The translations under genes and the position numbers were made by a program. Positions 7,370-32,000 of a DNA stretch of 32,000 bases are shown here, one piece after another. The DNA is taken from assembly GCA_041494705.1 (NCBI GenBank), contig JBGQBI010000003.1, forward strand, positions 120,001-152,000, read 5' to 3'. The notes under the pieces were generated by a model. The model did no database searches. It had not been told where the DNA came from and saw only the letters and a program-made list of their open reading frames with translations. Within the stretch, counting starts at the first letter, position 1. Each line of letters starts with the position of its first letter. The DNA is from Candidatus Methanoperedens sp. Its GTDB lineage: Archaea; Halobacteriota; Methanosarcinia; Methanosarcinales; Methanoperedenaceae.

Positions 7370-7385
7370 GTTGGTCTTCTGAGGG

Positions 7386-7428: not shown

Positions 7429-7482
7429 ATGCCGTATAGTTAAGGATAATCAAATTTACAATTAAGTTCGATAAATGTCAGG

Positions 7483-11440: not shown

Positions 11441-11542
11441 TTGAAAAATTTTTACATCGATGGGGTTTGTTTTGCGGATGATAATTTCCGAAATGTGAAA
11501 CAATACAGAGCAGCAGTGATGTGTGTTCGTTATGGAAGGTAA
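11441..11542 (+). CDS. Candidate 33-codon upstream ORF (MKNFYIDGVCFADDNFRNVKQYRAAVMCVRYGR) overlapping the SPASM radical SAM start; speculative
   Basis: A TTG at 11441 is preceded by AAAGAGGGAAAG (SD-like GAGGG, 4-nt spacer). The TAA at 11540-11542 overlaps the downstream ATG at 11532 by 11 nt. The downstream gene has no SD of its own. Confidence 0.2.
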   Translation: MKNFYIDGVCFADDNFRNVKQYRAAVMCVRYGR

Positions 11543-12651: not shown

Positions 12652-12694
12652 ACGAAACATATTAATTTAAATACTCTTGGGGAAATCACAGAGC

Positions 12695-13222
12695 ATGGAT
12701 AAGAAACTGATGCGTGGTATTTATATCGGTTTGGTCGTGGTAGTAATCCTTTCCACCTACTATTATTTCTTCAGTCCCCTTCCCCCGGAAGATAGGGTTT
12801 ATTCAGAGGACATGGTCTGGTTATTCAACAAGATTGACAGCGTCAATGGTAAAAAGCTCTCCCCTGAGCAGGCTGCAACCGTCAATTCAACATTTACAGG
12901 CTCCTCAGTAGTAGTTGTCGTCTTCGACCAAGATGGCAACAGGATGCGCAGGAAAATATCGTTCGGCAACGATACCCTGGTTGTGACCAAGGAGTCATCT
13001 GCCGAGGCTGAAATAAGGCTGAGCGATGTTGCCGTCCACAAACTCAGACCTGTAATTGAAAGCGCTTTAGAAGACCATGTCATCTCCACGGGAGAAAAGG
13101 CTGAGATTATAGCGCAGGTGGTCAGTCTAAAAGCCCAGAGGCAGATTCTTATGGAGGATCCCTTCCTGGCGAAGCTGATAAAAGATAAGACGATTGATAC
13201 CCTGAAGTCATTCGTGAGTTGA
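12695..13222 (+). CDS. Hypothetical N-terminally membrane-anchored protein (~175 aa), no recognisable family
   Basis: The N-terminus MDKKLMRGIYIGLVVVVILSTYYYFF is a signal-anchor, followed by a balanced soluble domain. It is on the same strand as the flanking radical SAM genes and tightly spaced to them. The track start at TTG 12677 is less likely than the ATG at 12695. Confidence 0.6.
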   Translation: MDKKLMRGIYIGLVVVVILSTYYYFFSPLPPEDRVYSEDMVWLFNKIDSVNGKKLSPEQAATVNSTFTGSSVVVVVFDQDGNRMRRKISFGNDTLVVTKESSAEAEIRLSDVAVHKLRPVIESALEDHVISTGEKAEIIAQVVSLKAQRQILMEDPFLAKLIKDKTIDTLKSFVS

Positions 13223-13236
13223 GGGGGAAGACCTGA

Positions 13237-14664: not shown

Positions 14665-14669
14665 AATTT

Positions 14670-17600: not shown

Positions 17601-17729
17601 AAAACTTGGGAATACCAAGACTTTTATCTAAAGTTCAACACCGGTGGTAAAAAGGACATGCAGTACCGGGTCTATTTCGAGAGGGGTGAAGGGCTCTGGG
17701 TGGACTTCATTGAAGTGAGCAAAGAATGA
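14670..17729 (+). CDS. ArnT/PMT-like GT-C membrane glycosyltransferase (about 470-aa TM domain) fused to a large extracytoplasmic region with a discoidin-like module and an extra C-terminal CBM-like module
   Basis: The first loop MGDDAISDGVSAMLI resembles the ArnT motif DEARYAEISREML. The stretch FWTALLAIAQKLFGVTSFWQLFLASLVGFLTVIVTYYAGKTMYG matches the PMT_2/ArnT helix pattern. About 12-13 hydrophobic helices run to ~aa 460. The C-terminal ~137 aa (nt 17316-17726) begin ILEAEYL...GYIVYGPGIPLYVPGVYNARFRMAV, a pattern typical of CBM6/35-type modules. Confidence 0.75.
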   Translation: MEIDKNEALMLGIVLIIAGVFFFHNIPRDMGDDAISDGVSAMLINRAHDTGISAYEVFQEASQSAGSGGRMLSPHAFRFMGMGTPFWTALLAIAQKLFGVTSFWQLFLASLVGFLTVIVTYYAGKTMYGRTVGFLSALLLGSSLFFVIQTRTASGFLAIAPLMAILAAYLFYTAHKTKDRKYLWYCGLALGLSFFNGYPLSFLIIPILGFFFLWNFRFGSFLRNFTKVRTIWKQSIDGSGESALLGLRDYITMAIVAISLFMLLTVAWSLYANVPAMDTYNEISGPRTLGQMRLDNLDAIISQKGTGYFGLTWLPQTTEWKIATEKRYWKVIFLEMDPWESLNGVHDQQQLAGRPMVAPFATIFFFAGILAMLWRRSMADKLCLVWLGVTKFAFTLPMGFAPRSLMIAAPVIYLTAAVGLVYSFQLLEKKIGRIYREEKVRKVLMVLFAGGLLFTVSMTYGEVFREYYGMDANIERLVGTNEVGRYISENSNPNDTVLVLGEIMAVPYDAIFLSTSGKPYKVLYWWDDVLLGKLGGRGPSGTIAPKLDDWEKEVLKNNSEIIYVFATGARYNKIPGWNLYDQPPWNEFEELHPGIEPVKRTYFSNGIPSSVVYVVNRSTPRNNYLTLRSKPDSEFYSSSDDNISFINIQGGGKNPYLLIGNDSFTLPMDVPPSMEVSITFDKNSRILFEPLIESKDYEKDIFEQKNLIFMAGAGRSFLELDGSSGYLIYKIESPFKIERLDIRTNPRVFNDRNRKNAISAYYSTDNKSYKRIYEVRSSGNSDWANYRDQITGNTWNNGIYDRETYDVIYPDSNIVYIKFSFEGYPGEAQLWSRGEGNHWLMFDAKVDTSSMKKFEVKKGLNTVKTWLAAPGEVTVATENAKITPKILEAEYLPSSTGVLEGGDHLSNGMTRRANGSIHPTGYIVYGPGIPLYVPGVYNARFRMAVLNNTITEDVARIEVVEGSDILEEREIKGTNFSKTWEYQDFYLKFNTGGKKDMQYRVYFERGEGLWVDFIEVSKE

Positions 17730-17774
17730 AAGGATATATACAAGAATTTTTTTGCATGTGGAAATAAAATCTTT

Positions 17775-20321
17775 ATGCGACAGGATGGCATATCTGAAAA
17801 AACAAAAGAACTTGTAATGCTTGCATTATTGCTCATCTTTTCTTCTTACTTCCTTTTCTACAAGCTACCGGACGAGATGGGTGATGACGCAGTAAGCTGG
17901 TCAAATTCCGCAATGTGGATAAATGAGGCACATGCGTCAGGCAGACCTGTGCTGGAAATACTCGATGATGCCATAAACAGCCCAGGAGGAATAAACGCAT
18001 TTTCTGTGAATGCGTTTTTTATAACCGGCTTGGCGACTCCCCTGTGGGCAATGGTGCTTGCAGCAACGCAAACGTTTGTCGGCAACTCTGCTTTCTGGAC
18101 GCTGTTTTTATCGGCGTTTTTTGGTTTTCTTACTGTAATAGCCGTATATTTTACCGGCAGGGAATTTTATTCAAAGGAAGTTGGATTCATTTCAGGCATT
18201 ATCCTGTCGAGCATGCTGCTTTTTGCTCTTATCTCCAGGTCAGGCTCCGGTTTTTATACACTTCAAACATTTTTCTCTATGCTTGCTCTATTTTTTTTCC
18301 TGAAAGCGCACAGGGATAAAAAATTAATTTATTTATTGTTATCAGGCATTTCAACAGCCCTACTGTTTTTCAATGGATATCCTACGGGATATACGATACT
18401 TCCAGTTCTATTACTGTACTTAATTGTAATATCTACAAAATCTTTCAAGACAAATACGTTCAGGTTCGGTGTTAAAGACTATCTGGCAGCAGCATCTGTT
18501 TTTATATCTGTTTTTATTGCATTGACTGTTTTATGGTCTCTTTACGCCAATCTCCACCCCCTGGATGTTTTCAATTCAATAGCTCACACAAGAGCTGCTT
18601 ACCAGAACCAGTATTTTTCGCCAAATACACTGGAAATCAAGCTAAAAACCATATTAAATTTTTTCATGACAGTTTTTATCCAGACGCCTGTGATCGAATC
18701 GCTGCGTGGCACCCATATCCAGCTTAATATAATCAGGCACCCGGTCATTTCGCCTTTTATATCGGTATTCTTTTTCACAGGATTATACTGCATAACCAGA
18801 AGGAGAAATTTTGCTGATATTCTGTTTATCGTGTGGAGCGGGCTGAGTTTAATAATATTTACCGTTTTTTTAAAATCATATCCTCGAACGTTATTCTTCA
18901 TCCTCCCGGCTATCGCAATTATCGCAGCTAACGGGATTGTATATATTGTAAAATGGTTCGATCGCTTTCAGAATGATAAAAAAATATTAAAAAAGTATGT
19001 ATCTATTTTTCTTGTGCTGGGTTTAGCTCTTAATGCCTATTACATGCAACATGAGATGTTTACGTACGTTTATGGCACGATGGGTGGAAATATTAACAGG
19101 TTCTACGGGATGTCGGCAGTTGCGACCTATATCAACCAGAACGGAGAACCGGAGAAAACTGAGGTGGTACTCGGAGACAGCATTTTAGCGCCGTATGATG
19201 CTTTCTATTTCTATACATACGGCAAGCCGTACTCTGTGCTTTACTGGTGGGACGATCTGCTGTACAAAGAACTTGGCGGGAGAGTGGACGCTGTAAACAA
19301 GCTGTATGCATGGGAAACACAGATTCTTCTGGAAAAAGAGAAAATTTATTATCTTTTCGCTGTGGGAGGCAAGTACAATGAAATCCCGGGCTGGAATTTA
19401 TGGCAGCCTGTGGAATGGGGGGAGTTCAAGGAGCTGCATCCCGACCTTCAACCTGTCAAAAGGATATTTTTCCCAAACGGCATACCTGCGCTTGAACTCT
19501 ATGAGGTCAACAGGACAACTCCAGGAAACAACCACATCACACTGGATGTACAGAATAACTCGGAATTCTCAATCCAGTCAGCATCGGATGGGTATGTGAA
19601 ATTTATAAAAATAAAAGGCGCTATAAGGAACCTGAGCATCTCGGGTGAAAACCAGACCTTCACACTACCCATGGAGAGCCTGCCCAGCATGGAGGTCTCC
19701 ATAACCCACGATGAGAACAGCCGGGTACTCTTTGAGCCCCTTTTCCTGAGTGAAAATTACAGGAACGAAATATACTTGGAAGAAAAAATCGACCTGAAGG
19801 AAAATGCAGGATGGATTGGACTAAATGATACTTCAGGCGACTTGATGTATAAAATAGAAGCACCTTACAGGATAGAGAAGCTTTCTATACGGAGCAACCC
19901 GAGGGTGTTCAACGATAAAATAAAGAAAAACAGTGTGTCCATGTATTACTCCATGGACGGCAAAAACTTCCAGAAGGTCTATGAAGTAAGGAGCGATGGC
20001 ACGGGGAGCTGGGCTGTTTACAGTGACCCCATCACTGGTACCGCTTTTAATGACGGGATATACGAGAGGGAAAGCTACAACATCATTTATCCACAAAACC
20101 GGATAGTTTATATCCTGTTCAGGCTCGAAGGCGCCACTGGAGAATCCCAGCTATGGTCAGCGAACAAACAGCACTCTTTGATGTTCGATGCTGAAATGGA
20201 TACCTCTTTTGCGCCGAAATTAAAACTCAAAAAAGGATTGAACTATTTTAAAGTCAATGCAGAAAACAGCACTGCAGTAAAACTTACCATTGCAGCGGAT
20301 ACTGGTATCCTGCTTAAATAG
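17775..20321 (+). CDS. Paralog of the preceding GT-C glycosyltransferase (848 aa), lacking the terminal CBM-like module
   Basis: It is collinear with the 14670 product. Matching blocks include EMGDDAVSWSNSAMWINEAH, GKPYSVLYWWDDLLYKELGGR, PGWNLWQPVEWGEFKELHPDLQPVKRIFFPNGIP, LPSMEVSITHDENSRVLFEPL, and IRSNPRVFNDKIKKNSVSMYYSMDGKNFQKVYEVRSDG. Confidence 0.75.
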   Translation: MRQDGISEKTKELVMLALLLIFSSYFLFYKLPDEMGDDAVSWSNSAMWINEAHASGRPVLEILDDAINSPGGINAFSVNAFFITGLATPLWAMVLAATQTFVGNSAFWTLFLSAFFGFLTVIAVYFTGREFYSKEVGFISGIILSSMLLFALISRSGSGFYTLQTFFSMLALFFFLKAHRDKKLIYLLLSGISTALLFFNGYPTGYTILPVLLLYLIVISTKSFKTNTFRFGVKDYLAAASVFISVFIALTVLWSLYANLHPLDVFNSIAHTRAAYQNQYFSPNTLEIKLKTILNFFMTVFIQTPVIESLRGTHIQLNIIRHPVISPFISVFFFTGLYCITRRRNFADILFIVWSGLSLIIFTVFLKSYPRTLFFILPAIAIIAANGIVYIVKWFDRFQNDKKILKKYVSIFLVLGLALNAYYMQHEMFTYVYGTMGGNINRFYGMSAVATYINQNGEPEKTEVVLGDSILAPYDAFYFYTYGKPYSVLYWWDDLLYKELGGRVDAVNKLYAWETQILLEKEKIYYLFAVGGKYNEIPGWNLWQPVEWGEFKELHPDLQPVKRIFFPNGIPALELYEVNRTTPGNNHITLDVQNNSEFSIQSASDGYVKFIKIKGAIRNLSISGENQTFTLPMESLPSMEVSITHDENSRVLFEPLFLSENYRNEIYLEEKIDLKENAGWIGLNDTSGDLMYKIEAPYRIEKLSIRSNPRVFNDKIKKNSVSMYYSMDGKNFQKVYEVRSDGTGSWAVYSDPITGTAFNDGIYERESYNIIYPQNRIVYILFRLEGATGESQLWSANKQHSLMFDAEMDTSFAPKLKLKKGLNYFKVNAENSTAVKLTIAADTGILLK

Positions 20322-20324
20322 AAT

Positions 20325-22730
20325 TCAAGTGTTTTTTCTTACCCGGTTGAATAGCAGAATCCCTGAACATACAGCCAGTACTATCAATGAAAACAGTAAT
20401 CCCGCATAGAATAAAAGCTGCGGCCAGTAATACAGGGTAACGTAGTAGGTTCCGGGTTTATCGAAATACCAGCCATTGGCATAGCAATTTACAAGAATAT
20501 GTTTATCCGGACTTATTATGGATTTTTTAAAGAGATATGAAATGTCGCCAATAACGAAACTATTTTCGTGTTTTGTTTCATTCACATTAATGTCTTTATA
20601 CTCCGCAATCACTTCATTGAACCTGAGTGGTTCGCTCTCGAAATAAGCAGTCCACCCCGGATGGTAGCTCTCGGAGAAGACGAGGAAAAATGGCGAAGTA
20701 GCATTTTCTATCTTAACTATATATTTTGTCGGATTAATTTTTTGGAATGTAACGGCAGGTTTTGAATTTTCACGAATTTTATATTTTTCTAAAAAATTTT
20801 CCGAGGTTTCATTAACCTGACTTGAAACGAACAGCGCAGTATTGTTCATTTTAAAATTGTTAGAAGTAACAACTTTGAACATTTCATTCTCTGAGCCGTT
20901 GATAAAAATCGGTGTGTCAGCGGAATATATACGTGGAAGGAAATAGTTTTTATTATCATATATGGTTAAAGAGCCATCCTTTTGATAGATCATGGTTTTG
21001 TTAAAAATTCTTTCTAATTCTGATACATTCTCTTTTTGTGTAAATCCAAACCAGGGATACATATCTGTTTCAATAACTATTTTTTTAATATTATAAATAG
21101 CTAGATACTTGTAATAATTGGGTGAAGAAATATGGTTGAATAAGATATCAAAATTAACCAAAATATTGTTGCTGTATGTGGCTATGAAAGGTTTATTTAG
21201 ATTATAAAGTACCGGGTCCATTCCCGTATAGTATTTATCACCGCTTATTGGAAGCATAACCTGGTAATTTCCGCTTGCTGGTAAACTCAGCACCCTGTAC
21301 TCTATTTTATCGTTATTTATTTGTTCCCTCAAGTTCTGGTATTCTACCCTGTCAACATAACCTCTTGAACCATATCCCATTTCACCGATTTTATAATCCG
21401 GGATAAAATTACTTGTGATAAAGGGAATACTGGAAAAGGCTAAATAAATCACAAAAAGACTTAGGGTATATTTATAATATCTTTCTTTTTTAAATTCTTT
21501 TAACGTGAATATCAATAACAACGTAAATAAAAATATATATAGTATTCCCCATTTTTCTGTAGATGTCTTAAATATACTGAATATAAAATTATTTAAAATC
21601 AAATATGCATATATACCGCCCAGAGGATATCTTACTCCGGCTATTAAAAAACCTGCAATTAATACCAGAACCGTTAAATACAGAATATGTTTCTTTGGGC
21701 GTTTAGTTATAAGTAGATAAAAAAATATAATTAAAATCGGAATCAGCAGGACTAAAATAGCCAATGTAGAATTATAATGATTTGAAAAAAAATTATATGA
21801 AGGGTCAGAGGGAATATCTGCTGTAAACGTAAATATTTTCCAGAAAATCGGATCAAATCCTGCGCTATTTAGCCATGATAATGCAAAACTCTGTGGATAC
21901 ATTTTCCTGGCATCTGCCAGTACATAGAACCAATTAACGATCCACCAGATGTTGAATAATATAAAAGATGTTAGAACGATAATATACTTTTTAAATATCT
22001 GAGACAAACTAATGTCGGGCTTCAGGTAATAAGAAATTATAATCACTGATATCACGATAGAAATCTGATGCAGCACAGCCAGCGGCGGATTTGCATTGGC
22101 ATATGCGAAAATGAACGAGACTAAACCAAAATAAAAAAATAATTTAAAGTTATTGTTGAAATATCTTAAAATTATCCAGAAAAAAATAGGGATCAAAAAA
22201 AATGTGGCTGTGTTCCATTGATTAAGGGTTTCTAAATCGTTAAGGCTGAACGGATTGGTGATGTAGAATAAAGCGATGCCGAATGAAATTGGCGGTGATA
22301 TTTTTAGTTCTTTGCACACTAAAAATATCCCAATAAACGGTAAAAAATATATTAAAAAAATTAAGATAAAATTGGTTAAGATAATACTTCCAAATAAATT
22401 TTGAAGAAATATTAAAAAATAAACGTTAAAAAACTCAGCGTTTAACGAAGTACCGAAAAAACCGGTTCCTAAATTCAGCCAAGCGTACCCATGGGTATTA
22501 AAATGTACGTTAAAATCCAGATAATAGTTGCCCTCGCCCCCGAATATGATGTGTCCTGCCCTATAGTATTTTGATAATGTATATGCTAATATTAATCCAT
22601 ATAATCCCAAAAAGAAGGTGTAACTAATAGTGTATTTTTTCATGCAATCTCTTGCATTTGAGGTCAAATAAGAAATACGATGGATGTATTTTTTTAATGT
22701 CTGATTATTCAAATTTGCAACCATGCCCAC
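20325..22730 (-). CDS. Large polytopic membrane protein (801 aa) with an extracytoplasmic domain and a C-terminal TM anchor; YfhO/AftD-style GT-C glycosyltransferase candidate
   Basis: It has many TM helices over ~450 aa and then a soluble domain. The C-terminus SESYHPGWTAY...NCYANGWYFDKPGTYYVTLYYWPQLLFYAGLLFSLIVLAVCSGILLF follows the pattern (sY.pGW.a...n....G....G.h.v.l.Y.P..l..G..iS plus a final TM) that I associate with YfhO-like proteins. An alternative start is the ATG at 22643 (MKKYTISY). Confidence 0.55.
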   Translation of the reverse strand: MGMVANLNNQTLKKYIHRISYLTSNARDCMKKYTISYTFFLGLYGLILAYTLSKYYRAGHIIFGGEGNYYLDFNVHFNTHGYAWLNLGTGFFGTSLNAEFFNVYFLIFLQNLFGSIILTNFILIFLIYFLPFIGIFLVCKELKISPPISFGIALFYITNPFSLNDLETLNQWNTATFFLIPIFFWIILRYFNNNFKLFFYFGLVSFIFAYANANPPLAVLHQISIVISVIIISYYLKPDISLSQIFKKYIIVLTSFILFNIWWIVNWFYVLADARKMYPQSFALSWLNSAGFDPIFWKIFTFTADIPSDPSYNFFSNHYNSTLAILVLLIPILIIFFYLLITKRPKKHILYLTVLVLIAGFLIAGVRYPLGGIYAYLILNNFIFSIFKTSTEKWGILYIFLFTLLLIFTLKEFKKERYYKYTLSLFVIYLAFSSIPFITSNFIPDYKIGEMGYGSRGYVDRVEYQNLREQINNDKIEYRVLSLPASGNYQVMLPISGDKYYTGMDPVLYNLNKPFIATYSNNILVNFDILFNHISSPNYYKYLAIYNIKKIVIETDMYPWFGFTQKENVSELERIFNKTMIYQKDGSLTIYDNKNYFLPRIYSADTPIFINGSENEMFKVVTSNNFKMNNTALFVSSQVNETSENFLEKYKIRENSKPAVTFQKINPTKYIVKIENATSPFFLVFSESYHPGWTAYFESEPLRFNEVIAEYKDINVNETKHENSFVIGDISYLFKKSIISPDKHILVNCYANGWYFDKPGTYYVTLYYWPQLLFYAGLLFSLIVLAVCSGILLFNRVRKNT

Positions 22731-22736
22731 CTCAAC

Positions 22737-24218
22737 TCAGGTCTGCCATACCTGTTTTACAAATTCTTTGAAAAGAGCTCCTGTTTGCAAAATATATTCA
22801 GCCTTCCTGCGACTTTTGAAAATTTGCGTCAGGTAAATTTTTGAGAAATAATCAGGAAGGAAAGCAAACAGTGAATTATACTTTTTATGATTCTTTATAT
22901 AAAACTCATTGAAATCCAGATTGTGTTTAGCAAACCGGAACCTCGGGTCTAAAACAAGTTCACGGGGTGGTTCGCTCAGGAGATAATACTCTTCCGGATT
23001 CAGGTTCACATTTTGCTTTTCATATATTTCCGTGCCGATATACGGGATAAAGATATTAAAAGAGGTAACAGTCGGATTTATAGAGTCTAAAAGTTCCAGC
23101 GTCAGCTTCAAGTCTTCTTCGGTTTCTTCAGGCGTGTTTATCAATATATTCGCAAATGTTCTCATTCCGGTTCTGTGGCAAATATCAAATATATTTTTCA
23201 CATGGTCAACTTTAATTCCTTTTTTAAGCCGTTTCAAAACATCCGGAGAGCCTGATTCAACACCAAAATCAACCTGGATGCATCCCGATTTTCTCATCTT
23301 TTGAAGCAATTCTTCTGAAACGGTATTTATTCTTGCAGAACATGCCCATATCAAGTTTAATTTTCTTTTTATCAATTCGTCACAGATATCAGAGACTAAA
23401 TCCTTGCGTATGGTAAAATTATCATCTATGAAATAAAAGGAATCTATACCATACGTTTTTTTCAGGAACTCTATCTCATCCACTACATTCTTAGCGCTCC
23501 TGCACCTCAAGGATTTTCCAGGAGCGAGGACTTTACGCATTTCTGCGCTCACGCAGAAAGTACATTGCGAAGGACATCCTCTTCCCACAAGGATATAAAA
23601 GGAAGAAAGGAATAAACCTCTCACAGAATATGGATTCGGGAGGGTATAGTATTTCATATCCACTTTATCATAAGCCGGGAAGGGCATTGCATCCAGATCA
23701 TTAATAAGCGGTCTTGCTTCGGTCTGCACATATTCGTTTCTTGTCTTATCGTAGTATCCTATTCCGGATATATCATTATAATTTTTATTATCCAGTATTG
23801 CATGAGCCAGTTCATGCAGTGTAACCTCCCCCTCGCCAATTACTACAAAATCAACAGGACTACCTTCCCAAAAAAATTCTTTTGGACGTAGCGTGGGGTG
23901 AACTCCGCCGACAATAATTTTAACATCCCGATTAATTTTTTTTATTTTGTTTGAAATTTCGATAACATCATTAAATTCAGGAGTATAGCAGGTAATTCCA
24001 ACAATTCCGGGATTTAATTTTTCTATCTGTTTAAGGATACATCCCACAATTTTATCATGCTGGCTGCCAACAACCGCCGTTTCAGACTTGGGATCGACAA
24101 TCTCTGTCCTGATGCCATTTTTTTCAAGGGCAGAAGCCAGAAGCATCAAGGCAAGAGGAGGTCTGTGATGATTATAGGCTCTTTTTGGCGGCGAAACCAG
24201 ACATACATCAATACCCAA
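22737..24218 (-). CDS. B12-binding-domain radical SAM enzyme (class B type)
   Basis: It has the motif GCPSQCTFC. The N-terminal domain reads VCLVSPP...RPPLALMLLASALEKNGIRTEIVD...IIVGGVHPT...DFVVIGEGEVTLHELA. Confidence 0.9.
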   Translation of the reverse strand: MGIDVCLVSPPKRAYNHHRPPLALMLLASALEKNGIRTEIVDPKSETAVVGSQHDKIVGCILKQIEKLNPGIVGITCYTPEFNDVIEISNKIKKINRDVKIIVGGVHPTLRPKEFFWEGSPVDFVVIGEGEVTLHELAHAILDNKNYNDISGIGYYDKTRNEYVQTEARPLINDLDAMPFPAYDKVDMKYYTLPNPYSVRGLFLSSFYILVGRGCPSQCTFCVSAEMRKVLAPGKSLRCRSAKNVVDEIEFLKKTYGIDSFYFIDDNFTIRKDLVSDICDELIKRKLNLIWACSARINTVSEELLQKMRKSGCIQVDFGVESGSPDVLKRLKKGIKVDHVKNIFDICHRTGMRTFANILINTPEETEEDLKLTLELLDSINPTVTSFNIFIPYIGTEIYEKQNVNLNPEEYYLLSEPPRELVLDPRFRFAKHNLDFNEFYIKNHKKYNSLFAFLPDYFSKIYLTQIFKSRRKAEYILQTGALFKEFVKQVWQT

Positions 24219-24221
24219 ATT

Positions 24222-25118
24222 CTAAACCTCCAGCTCATTTTTTTTACAGAATACTACCATAGTCTCAGATAACTTAAATAGATGACCTATGGGTTTTATT
24301 ATTAATGAAAAGACCATAACAGGAACCATGAACAACGTTCTAATGGACTTTTTTCTATCCAATGAATTTATTAGACTGTGATAAAGGTCTAAAGGAAATT
24401 CAAATAATGGAAATGTCATGCTAAATATCTTAAATCCGTTTTTATTGAGTATTTTGTTAATAGTCTCCGGATTATAATGATGCAGATGCCGCGGAGAATC
24501 CAGATGTATCCAGTGTTTTTTCCCCAGTTTAAAACCAAGGCTGTTGATATTGGGAACTGATACCACAAGGATGCCATCTTCTTTCAGTATCCTGTCAATC
24601 TCTTTAAGTTCTTCGTTCGGATCATAAACATGTTCCAATACATGCCACAGGGTAATTACATCAAAAAAATTATCGGGGAATTTACATTCCGTTAACGTTT
24701 GGTTTAAAGTGTTAACTTTAGTTAGCTTATTGGTCAGGTTATATCCTACAGGGTTGGGTTCTATTCCATACAACTCCCATTCACCGGAAAAAACCGATAA
24801 AAAATCCCCATTGCCGCAGCCTATATCCAGAACCTTCCCTTTTGTTTTATGTTCCTGTATCTTGTTGACTTTAACCCGGTTTAAAAATTTGCAGAAAATC
24901 TTTTCAAACTTACCAAGTGCAGCGTGGTAATAACAAGCAGGGTAGAACTTTCCCATTTCATCCTTTTCCGGTCTTGGATTGAGGAAGACCAGACCGCAAT
25001 TGCTACACTTTACAACATTGAATGTATCCTCAGATAGATGATAACGAAAATCTTTACTTTCCATAATCCCTTCGTAATCATCTGAGCGGCAAAGAATGCA
25101 ATTTACTTTTTCCATCAA
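24222..25118 (-). CDS. Class I SAM-dependent methyltransferase with an N-terminal zinc-ribbon (CxxC...CxxC)
   Basis: The ribbon is CILCRS...CSNCGLVFLNP. Motif I is VLDIGCGNGDF, followed by FDVITLWHVLEHVYDP and ILVVSVPN (Methyltransf_23-like). Confidence 0.85.
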   Translation of the reverse strand: MMEKVNCILCRSDDYEGIMESKDFRYHLSEDTFNVVKCSNCGLVFLNPRPEKDEMGKFYPACYYHAALGKFEKIFCKFLNRVKVNKIQEHKTKGKVLDIGCGNGDFLSVFSGEWELYGIEPNPVGYNLTNKLTKVNTLNQTLTECKFPDNFFDVITLWHVLEHVYDPNEELKEIDRILKEDGILVVSVPNINSLGFKLGKKHWIHLDSPRHLHHYNPETINKILNKNGFKIFSMTFPLFEFPLDLYHSLINSLDRKKSIRTLFMVPVMVFSLIIKPIGHLFKLSETMVVFCKKNELEV

Positions 25119-26329
25119 TAGTTTCTCTCTTTGAACAATATTTCCAGATTATTCATAATTTCATCAGCGCGCTTCTCCCAGTCCCATTTTTCAATTATAA
25201 GATTTCTAGCATCATTTGCGGTATTTGTATATAAATTTTCATCTCTCAAAAGTTCTAAAATACTGTTGGCAAAACCCGTGATGTCTCTAGGAGGGACTTT
25301 TAGCATACCTTTTGGATAATACGTCCTTAAAGCCTCTAAATCAAAGCTCACTCCCGGCAGTCCCCATGCCATGCCTTCAGCAGCCGCCATACCGCCGCTG
25401 TCGTAGATTGCCGGGTGAACCATGAGCTTGCTCATCTTGAATATCTCAAATTTCTCGTTACCGTCTTTAAAGCCGAGCATATCGATTTGTTCTTCGAGGT
25501 TCTGTTCGTTTATTTTTTTTCTTACTTCTTTTTCCAGAGGACCATTCCCAATCATCGCCAGCCTTGCATCTGGCTTTGCTTTGCATACGTTTGCCCAGAT
25601 ATCGATTAATTCCAGTACACCTTTCTGGGGATGCAGCCTGCCCACGAAGCACGCATCATATTTTCTTTTATCTTTCGGGATTACCTTTTTTGAATTTAGA
25701 TATTTTGTTGAAGGGTTTATATCCACCCCGCCGCGAATTACCATTATCCCATTCCTGCCTCTTTTTCCTGTAATAAATCTTCTGACATCTGGTTCGCTGG
25801 TAACGAAGACAGCATCCGCATAACGCTTAACAATCCAGTAGATTGGCAATTGGGATAAATAATAAAACAGTCCTTTTAATTTTCTATCGCCGGTATAAGG
25901 CGAATCTCTGGAAAATGGATTGGGTGCAAAAAGGTAAAATCCTGCAACCCATTTTATTTTATCTTTAAACTTTAATTTCAATGCAAAAGCAGGAATAGAA
26001 TCCGGTAAAAAATCCGAAGCTGAATATACTATTAAATTATCAGGGGCTTTTTGAACTTTTAAAGCCCGGATACAACCTTTAATCGTCCTTATCATGTACA
26101 TAGGCACAAATCCAAGGTTTTTGTACCTTGAAGCCCGACATATCGTATAGTTAACATTCTCAAGATTATTCCTCATACACATTTCATAGCCTTCTTCCCA
26201 GACAAATATGTTTATAACATATCCAGATGTTGTCCATCTCCTGGCAAGCTCTATAAATATCCGGTCTCCCCCGCTTAGACCAAACCCGAGTGCGGCATTA
26301 GCAATTACGTAGATATTTTTAAGCTTCAT
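25115..26329 (-). CDS. GT4-type (GT-B fold) glycosyltransferase
   Basis: The N-terminus reads IYVIANAALGFGLSGGDRIFIELARRW. The C-terminal domain contains FVGRLHPQKGVLELI, AMIGNGP and YDSGGMAAAEGMAWGLPGV. A 4-nt ATGA overlap links it to the downstream MTase. Confidence 0.85.
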   Translation of the reverse strand: MKLKNIYVIANAALGFGLSGGDRIFIELARRWTTSGYVINIFVWEEGYEMCMRNNLENVNYTICRASRYKNLGFVPMYMIRTIKGCIRALKVQKAPDNLIVYSASDFLPDSIPAFALKLKFKDKIKWVAGFYLFAPNPFSRDSPYTGDRKLKGLFYYLSQLPIYWIVKRYADAVFVTSEPDVRRFITGKRGRNGIMVIRGGVDINPSTKYLNSKKVIPKDKRKYDACFVGRLHPQKGVLELIDIWANVCKAKPDARLAMIGNGPLEKEVRKKINEQNLEEQIDMLGFKDGNEKFEIFKMSKLMVHPAIYDSGGMAAAEGMAWGLPGVSFDLEALRTYYPKGMLKVPPRDITGFANSILELLRDENLYTNTANDARNLIIEKWDWEKRADEIMNNLEILFKERNY

Positions 26330-27092
26330 GCAAATTTGCTTCTTTTCTTGCTATAACTTCTATGCAATGGTATCCCGGGATTGGAATTGAGGAAAATTTT
26401 CTTAAATAATTCAAATGGTGCGCAGGGAATGTTCTAAAAAATTCTGATTTAAATATTTGAAATAATAGTTTAAAAAAAGGGTCAATTAGAGGATATTTTA
26501 ATGCTGGCGTATCTTTATATATTATTGAAAAATTATTTTTTTTCAATAAATCTTCAAAACTTTGAATGGATTTATATTCTCTCAAATGGGTTGGTTCGAG
26601 TACGGACTCCCCAGCATCATTTTTGTAAAAATATCTTGCATTTTTTGACTTTAAAACTGTCGTGCATAAAAATATTCCATTTGGTTTTAATATTCTATTT
26701 ACCTCATTTAAAAATAAATCATCATCGAGATGTTCGATAACCATCGTTGATGTTGCCATATCAAATGACTCATTCTCAAAATTAGTATGCAAAATATCAT
26801 TACACAATATAGTCACATCGCGAAGCCACATTTTTGTATCTCCACAAATAACTTCAGAAGAATCAACACCGTAAAGGTTTATATTTTTATTAATTTTTCT
26901 TATGTTATACAACAATGTTCCGCTTCCGCACCCCATATCTACAAGCTTAGAATTATTGTTATCTAAAATTTCAAGGAATTTACTCCAGATCAAGTCGGAG
27001 GAAATTATAAATTTTCGGTCTAAAGGAGCACCAAACGTTTTTTTATAGCGGTTATTAAACCAACGCGAATTATCTTCATTGTTATCAATCAT
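26319..27092 (-). CDS. Class I SAM-dependent methyltransferase
   Basis: Motif I is LVDMGCGSGTLL, followed by LYGVDSS, FDMATSTMVIEHLDD and GIFLCTT. An SD-like TAGGA lies 5 nt upstream of the ATG. Confidence 0.85.
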   Translation of the reverse strand: MIDNNEDNSRWFNNRYKKTFGAPLDRKFIISSDLIWSKFLEILDNNNSKLVDMGCGSGTLLYNIRKINKNINLYGVDSSEVICGDTKMWLRDVTILCNDILHTNFENESFDMATSTMVIEHLDDDLFLNEVNRILKPNGIFLCTTVLKSKNARYFYKNDAGESVLEPTHLREYKSIQSFEDLLKKNNFSIIYKDTPALKYPLIDPFFKLLFQIFKSEFFRTFPAHHLNYLRKFSSIPIPGYHCIEVIARKEANLHEA

Positions 27093-27186
27093 AATTCCTA
27101 TCTCTTTTAGCTATCATTTTTGCCCTTTTGGCATCAAGGGCTAACATTGGCTATTATATTGATGGTCAACTTATCGTTTTTATTTT

Positions 27187-28677
27187 TCATCTACCCTGCC
27201 CTCTAATTTTTAATAAATTATTTATAGAGTGATTTACTTTTATTAACCCTATTTGCATAACATATTTAGGATGCCATGTCAAAATTTTTAACATTTGTTT
27301 TGGTCTATAATAAAATTGACTGGCTGCCCTATTCCAGAGTTTAATGAGTTCATCTTCAGAAATCCCATCTAAAGAAAAGGTACGTGCCGAGCCAAACCGA
27401 TAATCTTTCCAGTCATTACTTTTAAGCAAACCCTTATCCTTAACATATTTATACAGACGTGTTCCTGGGAATGGGGTAACCAAAGTAAACAATGCATAAT
27501 CAAGGTCGAGTCTTTGGGATAATTTAATTGTATCCTCTATAGTTTCTTTAGTTTCCGTCGGGTAGCCTATCATGAAATATGCTTTAACCCGGATTCCTGA
27601 TTCCTTAATCATTTTAACAGTTTCAAACACCTGATCAATTTTTAAGCCCTTTTCCGCGAAGTCTAATATTTTCTGGTTCCCAAATTCGATACCGAGGGCT
27701 ATGGATTTGCAGTTTGCTTTTTTCATCTCAATTAATAATTCGCGGCTTAACGTGCCCACCCGCCCGTTAGTTTCCCAATCAATCTTATTTAATCCTCTCT
27801 CTACCATTCCCCTGCAAATTGCCATTGCCCATTTCTTATTCAGCGTAAATAAGTCATCTTCTATTCGAATCGCTTTTACGTTATATTTCTTATAAACAAA
27901 TTCTATTTCATCAAGTACGTTTTCAACGGATCGTCTTCTCTGGTTGCCCCATACTGCATTACAGGCACAGAAATGGCAGGCAAACGGGCACCCCCTGGAA
28001 CTCAGTATGAGTGTAAATGGTTTTTGCCCGCCGATAGAATGCGGCGAACGATATGCATCTAAAGGTAAAAGGTCTCTTGCCGGAAATGGTAATTCATCAA
28101 GATTTTTAAGATATTCACTTTGTTGATTTATAATAATTTGACCGTCTAACCTGTACGCAATACCTTTAACCTGAGCTAACTCGCCTCCTGCGCGGACTGT
28201 TTTAATTAATTCCAGCGTTGGATATTCCCCTTCTCCTATTACGCAGTAATCCACGAAAGGCATTGTCTGCATCACCTCTTCATGCTGCGGATGTATATGC
28301 GGTCCTCCAAAAATAATTTTAGTTTGTGGTGATTTTTCCTTTATCCCCTTTGCGATTTCTCCACAAACGTTGACCATAAATGTATATACGGTAACTCCAA
28401 CGAAATCGGGTGCATCGTTAGCGACTGATTCAATAACACCCTCGACAGATTGTTTCAATGCATTTCCATCAATTATTTTAACATCCATCCCATTATTTTG
28501 CAGTACAGCAGCAACATATGCTAATCCTATCGGCGGATCGATCACAAGCAAATCATTCTTAATAGCATTGATATAATCCGCATCAGGTGGTGAAATTAAC
28601 ACTACGATAGGTGGTTTTTTCTCATTGGGTTTTATTTCTTTAGTGTTTTCAATCATAATCCTTAACCTTTTTAGCAA
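27187..28677 (-). CDS. B12-binding-domain radical SAM enzyme (class B type)
   Basis: It has the motif GCPFACHFC. The N-terminal domain reads IVVLISPP...DPPIGLAYVAAVLQNNGMDVKIIDGN...IIFGGPHIHP...DYCVIGEGEYPTLELI. The C-terminal YFMIGYPTET...LVTPFPGT block is present. Confidence 0.9.
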   Translation of the reverse strand: MLKRLRIMIENTKEIKPNEKKPPIVVLISPPDADYINAIKNDLLVIDPPIGLAYVAAVLQNNGMDVKIIDGNALKQSVEGVIESVANDAPDFVGVTVYTFMVNVCGEIAKGIKEKSPQTKIIFGGPHIHPQHEEVMQTMPFVDYCVIGEGEYPTLELIKTVRAGGELAQVKGIAYRLDGQIIINQQSEYLKNLDELPFPARDLLPLDAYRSPHSIGGQKPFTLILSSRGCPFACHFCACNAVWGNQRRRSVENVLDEIEFVYKKYNVKAIRIEDDLFTLNKKWAMAICRGMVERGLNKIDWETNGRVGTLSRELLIEMKKANCKSIALGIEFGNQKILDFAEKGLKIDQVFETVKMIKESGIRVKAYFMIGYPTETKETIEDTIKLSQRLDLDYALFTLVTPFPGTRLYKYVKDKGLLKSNDWKDYRFGSARTFSLDGISEDELIKLWNRAASQFYYRPKQMLKILTWHPKYVMQIGLIKVNHSINNLLKIRGQGR

Positions 28678-29317
28678 TCATTATTTGTCCCTTGGGCATT
28701 AATCCAAAATAGCTCCCGTTCCATTTGTGGTCAATCACTTCAAAGCCTGAATTTTCCAGTACACTCTTTAAAGTCTTTTTTGTAAAAAATCGTATATGAG
28801 GGTTGGTTGGGTAGAAATATCTGTCAAATATAAATGCCAATATAAGTATTTTTAACAAATTGAAATCAGTTGTGGTTATTATTAAATGTCCCCCCATCTT
28901 TAAAGTTCTATTAAATTCCCTGAACATTTTTTCTACATCAAGAATATGTTCAACTACTTCAATTGAAGTGATTACATCAAAATACTGGGATGGGAATAGT
29001 AAATCAGTAATCTGGCTGACTTTAAAATTAATACCACTATACATGTCTCTGGCGAGCTTAATTGCAGTCTCAGAAATATCAACTCCATAAACATTGCTTA
29101 CGTTATCTAATTTCGCGAGTTCATTGGTAAAAAAACCACTCCCGCATCCAACGTCGAGAACAATACCTTTAATTACCGGTTTAGACACTTTTAAAATCCT
29201 GTTCAGATCAACCTCGTTCCATTCGGGAGGGGCTGTTGCAACACCTTTTTTGTTAACAGTCTCCATGTGCCAGTATCGTTCATAATAATTTTTTTCCAAA
29301 TCATGCACCTCCATCAT
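28649..29317 (-). CDS. Class I SAM-dependent methyltransferase
   Basis: Motif I is VLDVGCGSGFF, followed by VYGVDISETAI, FDVITSIEVVEHILD and GHLIITT. Confidence 0.85.
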   Translation of the reverse strand: MMEVHDLEKNYYERYWHMETVNKKGVATAPPEWNEVDLNRILKVSKPVIKGIVLDVGCGSGFFTNELAKLDNVSNVYGVDISETAIKLARDMYSGINFKVSQITDLLFPSQYFDVITSIEVVEHILDVEKMFREFNRTLKMGGHLIITTTDFNLLKILILAFIFDRYFYPTNPHIRFFTKKTLKSVLENSGFEVIDHKWNGSYFGLMPKGQIMIAKKVKDYD

Positions 29318-30455
29318 AAGAATTCAGTATTAGTTTTGCATTGCGTTCCGAAAAATGTTTTATCGCATAATCTCGACAATTGCCAGCAAGCCGCTCATAT
29401 TTTTTTTTGTTATTATACAAATCATTAATGGTATTTTTCAAATTTTCCATGGTCGGTTCAACAAGCACACTAACGCTGCTGTCAACTGCTAACGGAATCG
29501 CCCCTTTATTTGACCCGACAAGTGGTAAGCCACATGATATAGATTCTAAAATTACTTTTGCGAACCCTTCTTCGTATTGAGAAGGTATGGCAAAAATATC
29601 GCTTGCATTATAATATAATGGCAAATTATTATTATCCACTTTTCCAACAAAAATGACATTTGGCAACATTCCAGAAGATTTTTTTATATCTTCACTCAGA
29701 GGACCATCCCCTATAAATGCAAAGTGTATATTACTCTGGGTTTGTCTTGCAACATCCAATAAAACCTCAGCACCTTTGATTTTAATAAATCTTCCAACAA
29801 ACAATACAATAAATTTTCCATCCCACCCAAGCCTCTTTTTTGCTTCTAGTTTATCCTTTGGTTTGAAGATTTGCAGGTTAATCCAATATCTATAAACGTC
29901 TATTTTAGATTCTGATAATCCTAATTTTAACATCTCTTCTTTTGATTTATTTGATAAAGCCAAAATTTTATCTGCCGAATCCAGCGTCCATTTCATCAAT
30001 AGAGCAGTAAAAGACCGTTTATTTATTACGTAGAGTGCATGAGTGCTTGCGACAAATCTTTTGTTAAAAACTTTAGATAATATTTTTGCGATGAATGAAG
30101 CATTGAATCCCTGTGCATGTATTACATCAACCCTACCTGGATTTTGCAGCATGAAAATAAAGCTTCTGAAAAGAAGCCAAGGCGTGAGATAAAAAAATTC
30201 AAGAAATGGGTATTTTTCAAGTTTATGAAATAAATTCAAACCAAACCATGAATATCTCCTAATATCGAGGTTATCATTTTTCTCAACAGCTTTGCCTCTT
30301 GCTTTTGTTGTGATTGGTTGGTAGGTAAGAACATAAACCATGCAAACGTTTTTCCTCAAATACTCACACAGGTCATGGAGATGTGTTTCAACTCCACCTA
30401 TATTCGGTCTGAAAAAAGGAGATATAATCAGTACTTTTTCTTTTTGTATTTTCAT
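29301..30455 (-). CDS. GT4-type (GT-B fold) glycosyltransferase
   Basis: Diagnostic motifs are VLIISPFFRPNIGGVETHLHDLCEYL, FVGRFIKIKGAEVLL, FIGDGP, and the E-x7-E motif in IPSQYEEGFAKVILESISCGLPLVGS. Confidence 0.9.
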   Translation of the reverse strand: MKIQKEKVLIISPFFRPNIGGVETHLHDLCEYLRKNVCMVYVLTYQPITTKARGKAVEKNDNLDIRRYSWFGLNLFHKLEKYPFLEFFYLTPWLLFRSFIFMLQNPGRVDVIHAQGFNASFIAKILSKVFNKRFVASTHALYVINKRSFTALLMKWTLDSADKILALSNKSKEEMLKLGLSESKIDVYRYWINLQIFKPKDKLEAKKRLGWDGKFIVLFVGRFIKIKGAEVLLDVARQTQSNIHFAFIGDGPLSEDIKKSSGMLPNVIFVGKVDNNNLPLYYNASDIFAIPSQYEEGFAKVILESISCGLPLVGSNKGAIPLAVDSSVSVLVEPTMENLKNTINDLYNNKKKYERLAGNCRDYAIKHFSERNAKLILNSYDGGA

Positions 30456-30468
30456 TTTTTTAAACTTC

Positions 30469-31590
30469 CTAATTCTCGATGAGTTCTTTTATATCAATTT
30501 TGGGGAGTGAACTGACATACTTGAGTATATTATTCCTGTATTGTTCCTGCGCATGAAAAATCTTAAATATCGAATTTATGAATTCGGTCTCAGATGGCTC
30601 GATAACAAGGCCTAACTCATTATCTCTAACTACCGATGAAAAAAATCCAATACCGTCTGTAACAATAACAGGAAGCATATACTGGATATAATGCATAATT
30701 TTTCCGGGAATGGTGTAATATGAGTAGGTTTGTTTTAATGTTAGTATGTTTATCCCACAAAAGCAATCAGATAATATCTTAATTAATTGATCTGTTTCAA
30801 CAAAGCCTAAAAATTTAACATATTGTTCGACATGATATTGCTTGGATAATTGCTTAAAATACTCGTAATGGTGAGTTTTTGGACCAATGATTATTAAAGA
30901 AACGTCTTCTTCCTGCCTTATTTTGTTCAGCGCCTTTATTGCTAAATCCAAGCCAGAATCTTTCCTCATCTGTCCAATAAAGCATATATTTTTACTCATT
31001 TTGTTAGGGGAGATTGCACTTATTTTAATTCTCGGGTTAAATATGTATAATTTTTCTTTTTTCGCAATTTTTCTGCCCCAAAATTTATATCGCGCTTCGG
31101 ATAGTCTCGGAGTATGGTTTAAAACTACGTCATTAAGTTTGCATGCAAGATAATCATTAATTGGAAAAAGTAAATTATTGGCAACATAGCTGAAAAAGTT
31201 TTTTTTATTAACAGGATTTACGAGCCAATCGCCCGGTACGTATATAGATTCATCACACAGACGGCACTTGCGTAATAACCCTACAATAACCGCTGCATCG
31301 GTATTCTCAACCCAGACTACTCTGGGTCGAAATTTCCAGCAAATTAGAAAAAAAAGTTTTAAAATTTTGACAGTGTTGAAGATGTAAAAATACTTGTGAT
31401 TTTTGGTTTTAAAATACCAAATAATGTTATCTTTTAAGTAAATATTGGATGGTTTATAGCGAACCGTTATTTTCTCCAGGTCATGAATCAGGATAATGGA
31501 ATTCTTGCTGTAATTAATAATATCATTTTCAAAGGACTCTGTATCGGAAGAATTCATTTTAAATGCTAAAATATCTGCTTTGACCATCAA
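30469..31590 (-). CDS. Divergent GT-B fold glycosyltransferase-like protein
   Basis: The C-terminal half has the GT1/GT4 layout (CFIGQMRKDSGLDLAIKAL, LIIIGPK, VKFLGFV, LPVIVTD). The canonical E-x7-E motif is not evident, and the N-terminal half is unrecognisable. Confidence 0.55.
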   Translation of the reverse strand: MMVKADILAFKMNSSDTESFENDIINYSKNSIILIHDLEKITVRYKPSNIYLKDNIIWYFKTKNHKYFYIFNTVKILKLFFLICWKFRPRVVWVENTDAAVIVGLLRKCRLCDESIYVPGDWLVNPVNKKNFFSYVANNLLFPINDYLACKLNDVVLNHTPRLSEARYKFWGRKIAKKEKLYIFNPRIKISAISPNKMSKNICFIGQMRKDSGLDLAIKALNKIRQEEDVSLIIIGPKTHHYEYFKQLSKQYHVEQYVKFLGFVETDQLIKILSDCFCGINILTLKQTYSYYTIPGKIMHYIQYMLPVIVTDGIGFFSSVVRDNELGLVIEPSETEFINSIFKIFHAQEQYRNNILKYVSSLPKIDIKELIEN

Positions 31591-31658
31591 TGAATCTCCA
31601 TATAATTTCCTTATTTTGATTAAACAATCTATTTTATTTTATAGTTTATATGAATAAT

Positions 31659-32000
31659 CTATTTATTTAATACCATCTGTCTCTTAACAATATAATCCAA
31701 CATGTCCATCCTATGCATTTTTAATTCTTCGTTGGTCAGATTCGGATGCTTATATATAAAGTCTGTCTCCGCCTCTCCATCGCGTAATCCAAGGGTCATA
31801 ACGAACCTTTCGTAATCATGTGTCAATAATTCCATGCCATAATCCTGCGGTTTTTCGTAAATATCGCATCCAGGAAATGGGACAAAAGTCGAAACATCCA
31901 CTCCATCGGGCTGGACATCCTCTATGAAATCAATGTTCATTTTGCCGGTATTTTTTGCTTCTCCGGGTAAACCTACAATAAAAAACAGCCTTACTTTCAA
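31659..32000 (-). CDS. C-terminal part of a radical SAM enzyme (probably another B12-domain type); the 5' end lies beyond the right window edge
   Basis: FFIVGLPGEAKNT...VSTFVPFPGCDIYEK aligns with the FFMIGxPTET...PFPGT block of the five complete B12-type radical SAM proteins in the window. The Fe-S motif and N-terminal domain are out of view. Confidence 0.7.
   Translation of the reverse strand: MKVRLFFIVGLPGEAKNTGKMNIDFIEDVQPDGVDVSTFVPFPGCDIYEKPQDYGMELLTHDYERFVMTLGLRDGEAETDFIYKHPNLTNEELKMHRMDMLDYIVKRQMVLNK

Follow-up and report, generated by a model that had tools for sequence, protein, structure and literature searches.

We found that a stretch of Candidatus Methanoperedens sp. DNA (positions 120,001 to 152,000 of contig JBGQBI010000003.1, assembly GCA_041494705.1; 32,000 nucleotides, hereafter the window, whose coordinates are used throughout) carries on its minus strand, from 32000 down to 20325, an operon of ten tightly packed open reading frames (ORFs) in which glycosyltransferase (GT), methyltransferase (MTase) and B12-binding radical S-adenosylmethionine (rSAM) genes alternate. 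ORF calls and Pfam domains give the transcription order as a partial B12-rSAM, a GT-B, a GT4, an MTase, a B12-rSAM, an MTase, a GT4, an MTase, a B12-rSAM and an 801-aa membrane protein, which agrees with the gene content and order read earlier from the sequence alone (the original prediction). Comparison with related loci indicates that the apparent iteration of this order comes from three unrelated GT and rSAM pairs, each conserved independently, which form a mosaic into which MTase cassettes were recently inserted. On balance, we favour the reading that the operon, at least 16 kb long and represented in the window by its distal part, serves a cell-envelope glycan whose sugars undergo radical and methyl tailoring after their transfer, and that it belongs to a low-GC, rSAM-rich island, probably chromosomal in Methanoperedenaceae (ANME-2d). 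Genes are named by their start coordinate in the window and related contigs by locus names, L001 being the source-contig locus including the DNA upstream of the window operon.

The GT and rSAM adjacency is kept in archaeal relatives as well as in loci of Omnitrophota, Planctomycetia and Firestonebacteria. GT_30469 and the gene of a 421-aa rSAM are neighbours in the window and L001, in L010, L012, L006 (Omnitrophota) and L007 (Planctomycetia), the orthologs of GT_30469 that stand beside orthologs of the 421-aa rSAM in the last four loci being 47-90% identical, and both genes are absent from L003. In each of the three relatives carrying GT4_29301 (L010, L003 and L016), B12_27187 comes directly after it. 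The third pair consists of GT4_25115, whose orthologs are 44-89% identical, and B12_22737, whose orthologs are spread over 237 confirmed metagenome loci, Methanoperedenaceae-like contigs and metagenome-assembled genomes (MAGs) labelled Omnitrophota, Firestonebacteria, Planctomycetia and Patescibacteria. For this pair, 80 metagenome loci were sampled only through B12_22737 orthologs (41-70% identity), which avoids ascertainment through the gene of the 801-aa membrane protein, a GT-C glycosyltransferase by fold. Of the 50 loci with enough flanking sequence, 30 had a co-oriented GT4_25115-like gene no more than 2.5 kb upstream, and 7 more had another GT4 there; an MT_24222-like gene adjoined the B12_22737 ortholog in 38 of 61 loci. 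Of 41 loci, 16 had both a GT4_25115-like and an MT_24222-like gene, and of the 11 loci whose flanks reached 8 kb or more on both sides, 4 had a GT-C of the 801-aa family; the commonest order was GT4, rSAM, MTase.

This synteny supports the view that each transferase keeps a dedicated rSAM partner. The earlier proposal that each transferase has a tailoring partner of its own therefore survives as conserved GT-rSAM adjacency and falls away as a colinear, duplicated assembly line. We also put forward, as a tentative possibility, that GT4_25115, B12_22737 and the Zn-ribbon methyltransferase MT_24222 constitute a widespread, unnamed sugar-tailoring module, in which the GT4 would attach a sugar to a lipid-linked glycan, the rSAM and the MTase would convert that sugar in situ to a branched, C-methylated or deoxy form, and a GT-C resembling AftD would often handle the product.

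Next, we compared the paralogs within the window. The two GT4 enzymes are 23% identical, the MTases 25-29% and the B12-rSAMs 24-35%, whereas every operon gene has orthologs of its own in other genomes, bacterial ones among them, at 42-97% identity; because paralogs are this distant from each other while their own orthologs elsewhere are this close, there was no en-bloc duplication. Even the more distant orthologs are closer than the paralogs, at 42-45% for B12_22737 in bacterial MAGs, 49-50% for GT4_25115, 47-48% for GT_30469 and 44% for the 421-aa rSAM. Between the corresponding genes of the two apparent modules, identity is 23% for the GT4 pair, 28% for the MTases and 31% for the rSAMs. Furthermore, B12_27187 is nearer to two rSAMs from elsewhere in the window, at 298 bits for B12_13237 and 242 bits for B12_2629, than to B12_22737, at 192 bits. 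The co-duplication of modules that had been proposed left no signal in these pairwise comparisons, in which the closest relatives lie elsewhere, and en-bloc duplicated modules were rejected upon the combined paralog and ortholog comparison. The modules are therefore lineages of old and separate descent, none of them a duplicate of another. As statistics, the alternation is weak: among all orderings of three GT, three MTase and three rSAM genes, GT-MTase-rSAM occurs twice in 3.5%, and some ordered triple occurs twice in 17.5%.

The nucleotide sequence around B12_27187 accounts for the repetition. The gene is bracketed by a 49-nt direct repeat, D1, detected by a repeat search, whose copies are 80% identical at a spacing of 1564 nt, and the 94-nt gap that follows it (27093-27190) contains two gene remnants. 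The first (27190-27134) is identical at 43 of 57 nt to the 5' end of the intact GT4_25115 ortholog that directly follows the rSAM in L003, and it is also found in L010, where 55 of 57 nt are the same. The second (27137-27093) carries a 1-nt deletion relative to the 3' end of MT_28649 (LMPKGQIMIAKKVKDYD); it too is present in L010, and an in-frame form (MPKGQIMIAKKVRD) precedes the MT_26319 ortholog in L014. The MT_26319 cassette itself is present in L010, L012, L014 and L015 and absent from L003 and L016. These remnants indicate that MT_26319 arrived as a cassette together with the tail of a neighbouring MTase, landing in the 5' end of the GT4, and that the recipient was an L003-like backbone of the order GT4, rSAM, GT4, MTase, rSAM, GT-C.

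None of the related GT-C loci has an ortholog of MT_28649 (33% is the best match there), and the GT4_29301 ortholog is joined directly to the rSAM in L010, L003 and L016. Additionally, the first ~20 nt of B12_27187 are chimeric, being derived from the start of MT_26319 (MIEN.. versus MIDN..), and its N-terminus is unlike that of L010. MT_28649 is a lineage-specific cassette, inserted separately between GT4_29301 and B12_27187, and the insertion carried along the first ~20 nt of MT_26319. Since the 49-nt repeat and the two gene remnants show separate arrivals of MT_26319 and MT_28649, the GT-MTase-rSAM repetition arose recently, as a side effect of MTase genes being inserted on two independent occasions. 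In two distant metagenome loci (L028 and L050), MT_28649-like genes (42-45%) stand directly after GT4_29301-like genes; the inserted MT_28649 may recreate a GT4-MTase pairing present elsewhere.

Upon examining the relatives that were collected through the GT-C (L003, L010, L012, L014 and L016; percentages give the GT-C identity to that of the window), we observe that operon order and content shift at short evolutionary distance. L010 (89%) has the window order without MT_28649. L003 (84%) lacks both MT_28649 and MT_26319 and has a different GT in place of GT_30469 and its rSAM, and L016 (70%) reads GT4, rSAM, GT4, MTase, GT-C, without the terminal rSAM. In L012 (68%) the order is shuffled to rSAM, MTase, GT4, epimerase, DegT, epimerase, GT, rSAM, MTase, GT-C, rSAM, and L014 (58%) has four MTases and no rSAM in the 10 kb upstream or the 2.4 kb downstream. 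The module order expected to be conserved is thus variable in content, and in L012 also in sequence. A colinear duplicated assembly line is unsupported because co-duplication is absent, the related loci are shuffled or variable and the MTases were inserted separately; what stands of the iterated module is the order as it occurs in the window and the conserved partnership of GT and rSAM. As a side observation, the DegT and epimerase genes of L014 (9-3150) are each broken into two or three ORFs and are apparent pseudogenes.

Table 1. Features of the window, with the operon in transcription order, followed by the repeat copies, the gene remnants and the genes of positions 1-20321.
Feature	Coordinates	Strand	Basis or remark
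3' end (113 codons) of the 421-aa B12-binding rSAM gene, running past the window end	31659..32000	-	Alignment to the C-terminal part of window B12-rSAMs; full gene with Pfam domains at L001 3406-4671
GT-B glycosyltransferase GT_30469 (Glycos_transf_1, Gtf3_C-like), 373 aa	30469..31590	-	Pfam
GT4 glycosyltransferase GT4_29301, 384 aa, E-x7-E motif	29301..30455	-	Pfam PF13439 + PF00534
Class I SAM methyltransferase MT_28649, 222 aa	28649..29317	-	Pfam
B12-binding rSAM B12_27187, motif CPFACHFC, likely ATG start 28656 (489 aa)	27187..28677	-	Pfam, gene call
Class I SAM methyltransferase MT_26319, 257 aa	26319..27092	-	Pfam
GT4 glycosyltransferase GT4_25115, 404 aa	25115..26329	-	Pfam
Class I SAM methyltransferase MT_24222, N-terminal four-cysteine ribbon, likely ATG start 25115 (297 aa)	24222..25118	-	Pfam, gene call, TTGATG junction
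B12-binding rSAM B12_22737, 493 aa, invariant CPSQCTFC motif	22737..24218	-	Pfam, alignment invariants
AftD-like GT-C fold membrane glycosyltransferase, 799-801 aa	20325..22730	-	AlphaFold2 model and Foldseek against PDB
49-nt direct repeat D1, copy 1	28637..28685	.	MT_28649 3' end and B12_27187 start
49-nt direct repeat D1, copy 2	27073..27121	.	MTase 3' remnant and MT_26319 start
GT4_25115-type 5'-end remnant, MKNKNDKLTINIIANVSP*	27134..27190	-	Its ATG overlaps the B12_27187 stop as ATGA
Frameshifted MT_28649-like 3'-end remnant (LMPKGQK / MIAKRDRNYD*)	27093..27137	-	Alignment to MT_28649 3' end
Further B12-binding rSAMs	2629-4020, 4793-6412, 13237-14664		Window 1-20321
SPASM rSAMs	6416-7453, 11523-12602		Window 1-20321
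MTase	4025-4777		Window 1-20321
Two short GT2 genes	7483-8214, 10424-11230		Window 1-20321
NDP-sugar nucleotidyltransferase	1480-2553		Window 1-20321
Tandem paralogous PMT_2-type GT-Cs, 1019 and 848 aa	14670-17729, 17775-20321	+	41.6% identical over 863 aa

On the source contig (L001), the co-directional cluster carries on upstream past the window for 4.3 kb or more, with a GT2, an epimerase, a DegT aminotransferase and a second epimerase gene, so that the 12 kb first assigned to the operon is too short. The 421-aa rSAM gene comes directly after the run of epimerase, DegT and epimerase genes, with the final one of which it overlaps; the GT2 gene at the 5' end of the cluster is incomplete in L001. 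The overlaps first quoted between genes are those of the longest ORFs. Those of 17 nt and 11 nt hold; that of 29 nt between MT_28649 and B12_27187 depends on the start chosen, as it needs a TTG start and becomes 8 nt with the ATG at 28656, which is the start used by the JGI gene caller. The junction given as ATGA in fact reads TTGATG (25118-25113), which leaves a TGATG overlap of 1 nt if the ATG is taken as start. No tRNA genes were found in the window.

We next consider the identities of the enzymes. PF02310 and PF04055 score above cut-off in B12_22737, B12_27187 and the 421-aa gene, and the CxxxCxxC cluster motifs, CPSQCTFC in B12_22737 and CPFACHFC in B12_27187, have cysteines that are invariant among orthologs. 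All characterised rSAM subfamilies examined in NCBIfam (HpnJ, BchE, PhpK, KedN5, TsrM, AprD4 and others) score well below their cut-offs. The best match of B12_22737 is ApyD, an enzyme of peptides that are made on ribosomes and modified after translation (RiPPs), at 210 bits against a cut-off of 750; HpnJ (216 against 577) and BchE (222 against 481) are among the top matches of B12_27187 and also of B12_22737, and AprD4 reaches 101 against 500. Among solved structures the nearest relative is AprD4 (6fd2; E 1e-23 for B12_22737, 3e-20 for B12_27187), followed by TokK. The radical chemistry could accordingly be C-methylation, dehydration or rearrangement.

B12_22737 has 1,315 homologs at E<=1e-30, a large orthogroup without a name, and the best 120 of these include no protein fused to a GT or MTase domain. 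The public names of its homologs are generic or wrong (RimO, BchE, YgiQ): the ortholog P0191 of genome LFW-280_2_2 is recorded as "Ribosomal protein S12 methylthiotransferase RimO" and others as BchE cyclase or YgiQ, labels that look like annotation-transfer errors. The three GT-B enzymes match Glycos_transf_1 (PF00534) at 102, 101 and 71 bits (cut-off 26.4), with PF13439 additionally in the protein of 29301-30455, and the three MTases score above cut-off for PF13489 and PF08241, with the SAM motifs DIGCGNG, DMGCGSG and DVGCGSG; the four-cysteine ribbon of MT_24222 is kept in its orthologs. At the level of subfamilies, the rSAMs, MTases and GTs gave only generic, sub-threshold matches in NCBIfam and among PDB sequences.

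The terminal 801-aa protein has no Pfam match even at E<=10 and no NCBIfam match. Its AlphaFold2 model, built with 31 homologs, has a mean predicted confidence (pLDDT) of 87.7 and a predicted template-modelling score (pTM) of 0.88, and comprises a multi-pass transmembrane (TM) domain, a beta-rich extracytoplasmic domain at ~450-770 and a C-terminal TM helix. In a Foldseek search of the PDB, AftD (6w98) ranks first (E 1.2e-10), followed by STT3, PglB, ArnT, AftA and PMT, with GT-C enzymes at all ranks to 20. Because the model matches AftD best and then other GT-C enzymes, the label "GT-C-like" was right at the level of the fold, and the protein is assigned a GT-C fold. It shares with AftD (6w98, PF11847) the combination of a multi-pass GT-C domain and an extracytoplasmic beta-rich domain, and is unlike AftD in lacking a PF11847 match and in its length (~800 versus ~1,400 aa), the TM-score being only 0.49/0.32. 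The protein is not placed in PF11847 (GT-C_AftD), its family profile finding no AftD among PDB sequences, and PF11847 is present only in the distant homologs P0030, P0031 and P0101. It is also not an STT3/AglB-type oligosaccharyltransferase by sequence, having no PF02516 match and no WWDYG motif.

In GT-C enzymes the catalytic acid is located just after the first long TM helix. In the 801-aa protein, E66 and D72 sit just after such a helix (37-59); E66 is conserved in at least 90% of the 31 homologs and invariant in the 14 closer ones, and D72 is conserved in at least 90% of those 14. AftD has essential K39 and D41 after its TM1, to which the E66/D72 region may correspond in position. AftD further has a C-terminal region that binds acyl carrier protein. 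By analogy, the 801-aa GT-C would use a polyprenyl-phosphate-linked donor at the outer face. Its family comprises 11,038 representatives (50% identity) at E<=1e-3, mostly without Pfam coverage, with members in Methanoperedenaceae-like archaeal contigs as well as MAGs that bear the labels Firestonebacteria, Omnitrophota, Planctomycetia and Patescibacteria. Among the homologs, P0101 (1932 aa) has two GT-C domains, PF11847 at the N-terminus and the 801-aa family at residues 1154-1915, and a Firestonebacteria homolog (L004 10004-14035) has a long C-terminal extension.

The analysis establishes the domain identities, the GT-C fold, the lack of recent duplication, the insertion scars and the conserved adjacencies. 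Substrates, reaction order, action after transfer, radical chemistry and the part played by the GT-C are inferred from these and from known systems. The upstream dehydratase/epimerase, DegT aminotransferase and epimerase would make a modified NDP (nucleoside diphosphate)-amino-deoxy sugar, and the three cytoplasmic GT-B enzymes would add sugars onto a lipid-linked acceptor. After each transfer, the dedicated B12-rSAM would alter the new sugar at an unactivated carbon, candidate reactions being C-methylation or a deoxygenation or rearrangement of AprD4 or HpnJ type, while the class I MTases would attach O- or N-methyl groups. Finally, the AftD-like GT-C, on the membrane's outer face, would extend or attach the glycan using its polyprenyl-phosphate-linked donor.

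The closest precedent is gentamicin, in which GenN, an N-methyltransferase, and then GenD1, a cobalamin rSAM, act on the pseudotrisaccharide gentamicin A2/A (PMC4340712). The gentamicin X2 steps (GenD2/GenS2, GenN, GenD1; PMC4340712) resemble the window in combining an aminotransferase route, a class I MTase and a B12-rSAM that tailor a GT-attached sugar, and the window holds the same classes side by side; the likeness shown is one of enzyme class, not of specific sequence relationship to the Gen enzymes, and the window differs from gentamicin in its envelope-glycan context with membrane GT-Cs. AprD4 is an rSAM diol dehydratase of aminoglycoside biosynthesis that has a B12-like N-terminal domain and acts on a sugar, and its likeness to the window rSAMs lies mainly in the radical SAM core. 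By analogy, action after transfer is favoured: the substrate of GenN and GenD1 is a pseudotrisaccharide assembled by GTs, and AprD4, the nearest solved relative of both window rSAMs, modifies a sugar.

Several observations weigh against this proposal. GT4_25115 has an ortholog without a B12_22737 ortholog in L014, L016, L012 and L008, and ~40% of the sampled B12_22737 loci are without the GT4. AprD4, the closest relative with a solved structure, is a dehydratase and not a methylase, TokK, the next closest, is a methylase, and the scores of all named families, far below their cut-offs, leave the rSAM chemistry undecided. Moreover, neither a flippase nor a priming phosphoglycosyltransferase was identified in the operon, nor an intact flippase in the whole window, in analyses that did not specifically search for flippases.

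Among the alternatives, the rSAMs and MTases might act before transfer, building unusual NDP-sugars for the GTs, with the adjacency reflecting donor supply. The position of the 421-aa rSAM gene, directly after the epimerase and DegT genes and overlapping the last of them, would fit this, as would the DegT and epimerase genes that precede the GT4_25115/B12_22737 set in several metagenome loci. We consider it rather unlikely, given that GT genes separate two of the three rSAMs from the NDP-sugar genes and that the characterised sugar-modifying B12-type rSAMs considered (GenD1, PMC4340712; AprD4) act on glycosides and not on NDP-sugars. A lower probability is given to the modification of a membrane glycolipid head group in place of a protein- or polymer-linked glycan. 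GT4 enzymes frequently glycosylate lipids, and rSAM-dependent conversion of a lipid-bound sugar to a carbocycle occurs in the hopanoid cyclitol ether (HpnJ) and in archaeal calditol. In line with this, PimA and glycolipid synthases are among the GT matches, and HpnJ and BchE are among the top matches of both B12_27187 and B12_22737, but at scores far below their cut-offs, and the three or four large GT-Cs with extracytoplasmic domains, together with GT2s and NDP-sugar genes, are typical of polymer or protein glycosylation, which makes the glycolipid improbable.

The set of GT, aminotransferase, N-MTase and B12-rSAM mirrors gentamicin tailoring closely enough, and ApyD heads the matches of B12_22737, that a diffusible saccharide, an aminoglycoside-like product or a glycosylated RiPP was also weighed. 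Such a product seems very improbable, as genes for 2-deoxystreptamine, a precursor peptide or export did not turn up, a membrane GT-C is present in every operon variant, the neighbours are envelope-glycan genes and the ApyD score is far short of its cut-off. The least credible of all is a colinear assembly line of en-bloc duplicated GT-MTase-rSAM modules, since the double occurrence of GT4-MTase-rSAM in the window, which is all that speaks for it, arises by chance in 3.5-17.5% of orderings, the paralogs are not mutual closest relatives and have orthologs in other phyla, two of the MTases are recent insertions with scars and the order in relatives is shuffled.

Compared with the tailored envelope glycan that we favour, archaeal Agl-type clusters are similar in having GTs, NDP-sugar enzymes, MTases (e.g. 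AglP) and GT-Cs, the window being a variable, low-GC island, and weak matches to the NCBIfam Agl16 model occur among the window proteins. They differ in that the literature searched does not describe rSAM tailoring enzymes as part of them, and in that the terminal GT-C of the window is not STT3/AglB. GTs of the NCBIfam model TIGR04157 (glyco_rSAM_CFB, a GT-B) are, to judge from the model name, linked to rSAM genes in Bacteroidota; GT4_29301 is a weak match and not a member, with 78 bits against a cut-off of 400. Three-component extracytoplasmic glycosylation combines a polyprenyl-phosphate GT2, a flippase and a GT-C (PMC11127046, PMC8035078). A surface-glycan cluster is a known kind of system, and what is unusual is the density of B12-rSAMs, the pairing with GTs across domains and an AftD-like GT-C that Pfam does not cover. 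No description of these three features was found in the literature searched, and no direct precedent for rSAMs in archaeal or surface-glycan clusters, within a coverage that was incomplete.

The surface glycans of uncultured archaea and of candidate-phyla bacteria are chemically unknown. To our knowledge and within the literature searched, the three-gene module, if true, would be the first rSAM tailoring of a prokaryotic cell-surface glycan, and if the rSAMs act on lipid-linked sugars, the radical carbohydrate chemistry of antibiotics would extend to cell envelopes. GT4, B12-rSAM and Zn-ribbon MTase, often with an AftD-like GT-C, form a concrete, testable unit that recurs across domains. Furthermore, the insertion scars reveal, at nucleotide resolution, how a glycan operon diversifies through cassette exchange, which bears on the reading of pathway order from gene order.

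The operon is part of a larger island. Altogether, the window contains six B12-rSAMs, two SPASM rSAMs, four MTases, five GT-A/GT-B enzymes, two PMT_2-type GT-Cs, the AftD-like GT-C and an NDP-sugar nucleotidyltransferase. GC content is 30-39% in 20001-32000, which holds the operon, versus 45-48% in 13001-20000, and a related MAG is reported at 43.6%; the low GC of the operon would fit a glycan island that is hypervariable and exchanged horizontally. The closest genome match is a syntenic contig (84% protein identity) of the uncultured archaeon LFW-280_2_2, a MAG classified as Methanoperedenaceae (PMC8561730), and the attribution of the operon to this family is based on that bin. A Borg or viral origin was weighed and dropped in view of the 2.07-Mb length of the source contig.

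The 848-aa GT-C protein (17775-20321) matches STT3 as well as PMT_2, and its gene converges with that of the 801-aa GT-C, leaving 3 nt between the stop codons (20321, 20325). A 709-aa ORF on the plus strand (8270-10399), between the two short GT2 genes, has no Pfam match at E<=10, and a gene of 709 aa is likewise called at the corresponding edge of L010; the ORF could encode a further membrane glycan enzyme outside Pfam coverage. A 161-aa ORF (710-1195, minus strand) has partial Pfam matches to a dTDP-sugar isomerase domain and to the C-terminal domain of a polysaccharide-synthesis flippase, and could be a fragment or a fused remnant. Finally, a 181-aa ORF on the plus strand (12677-13222), between a SPASM rSAM and a B12-rSAM and without a Pfam match, is 93% conserved in L010.

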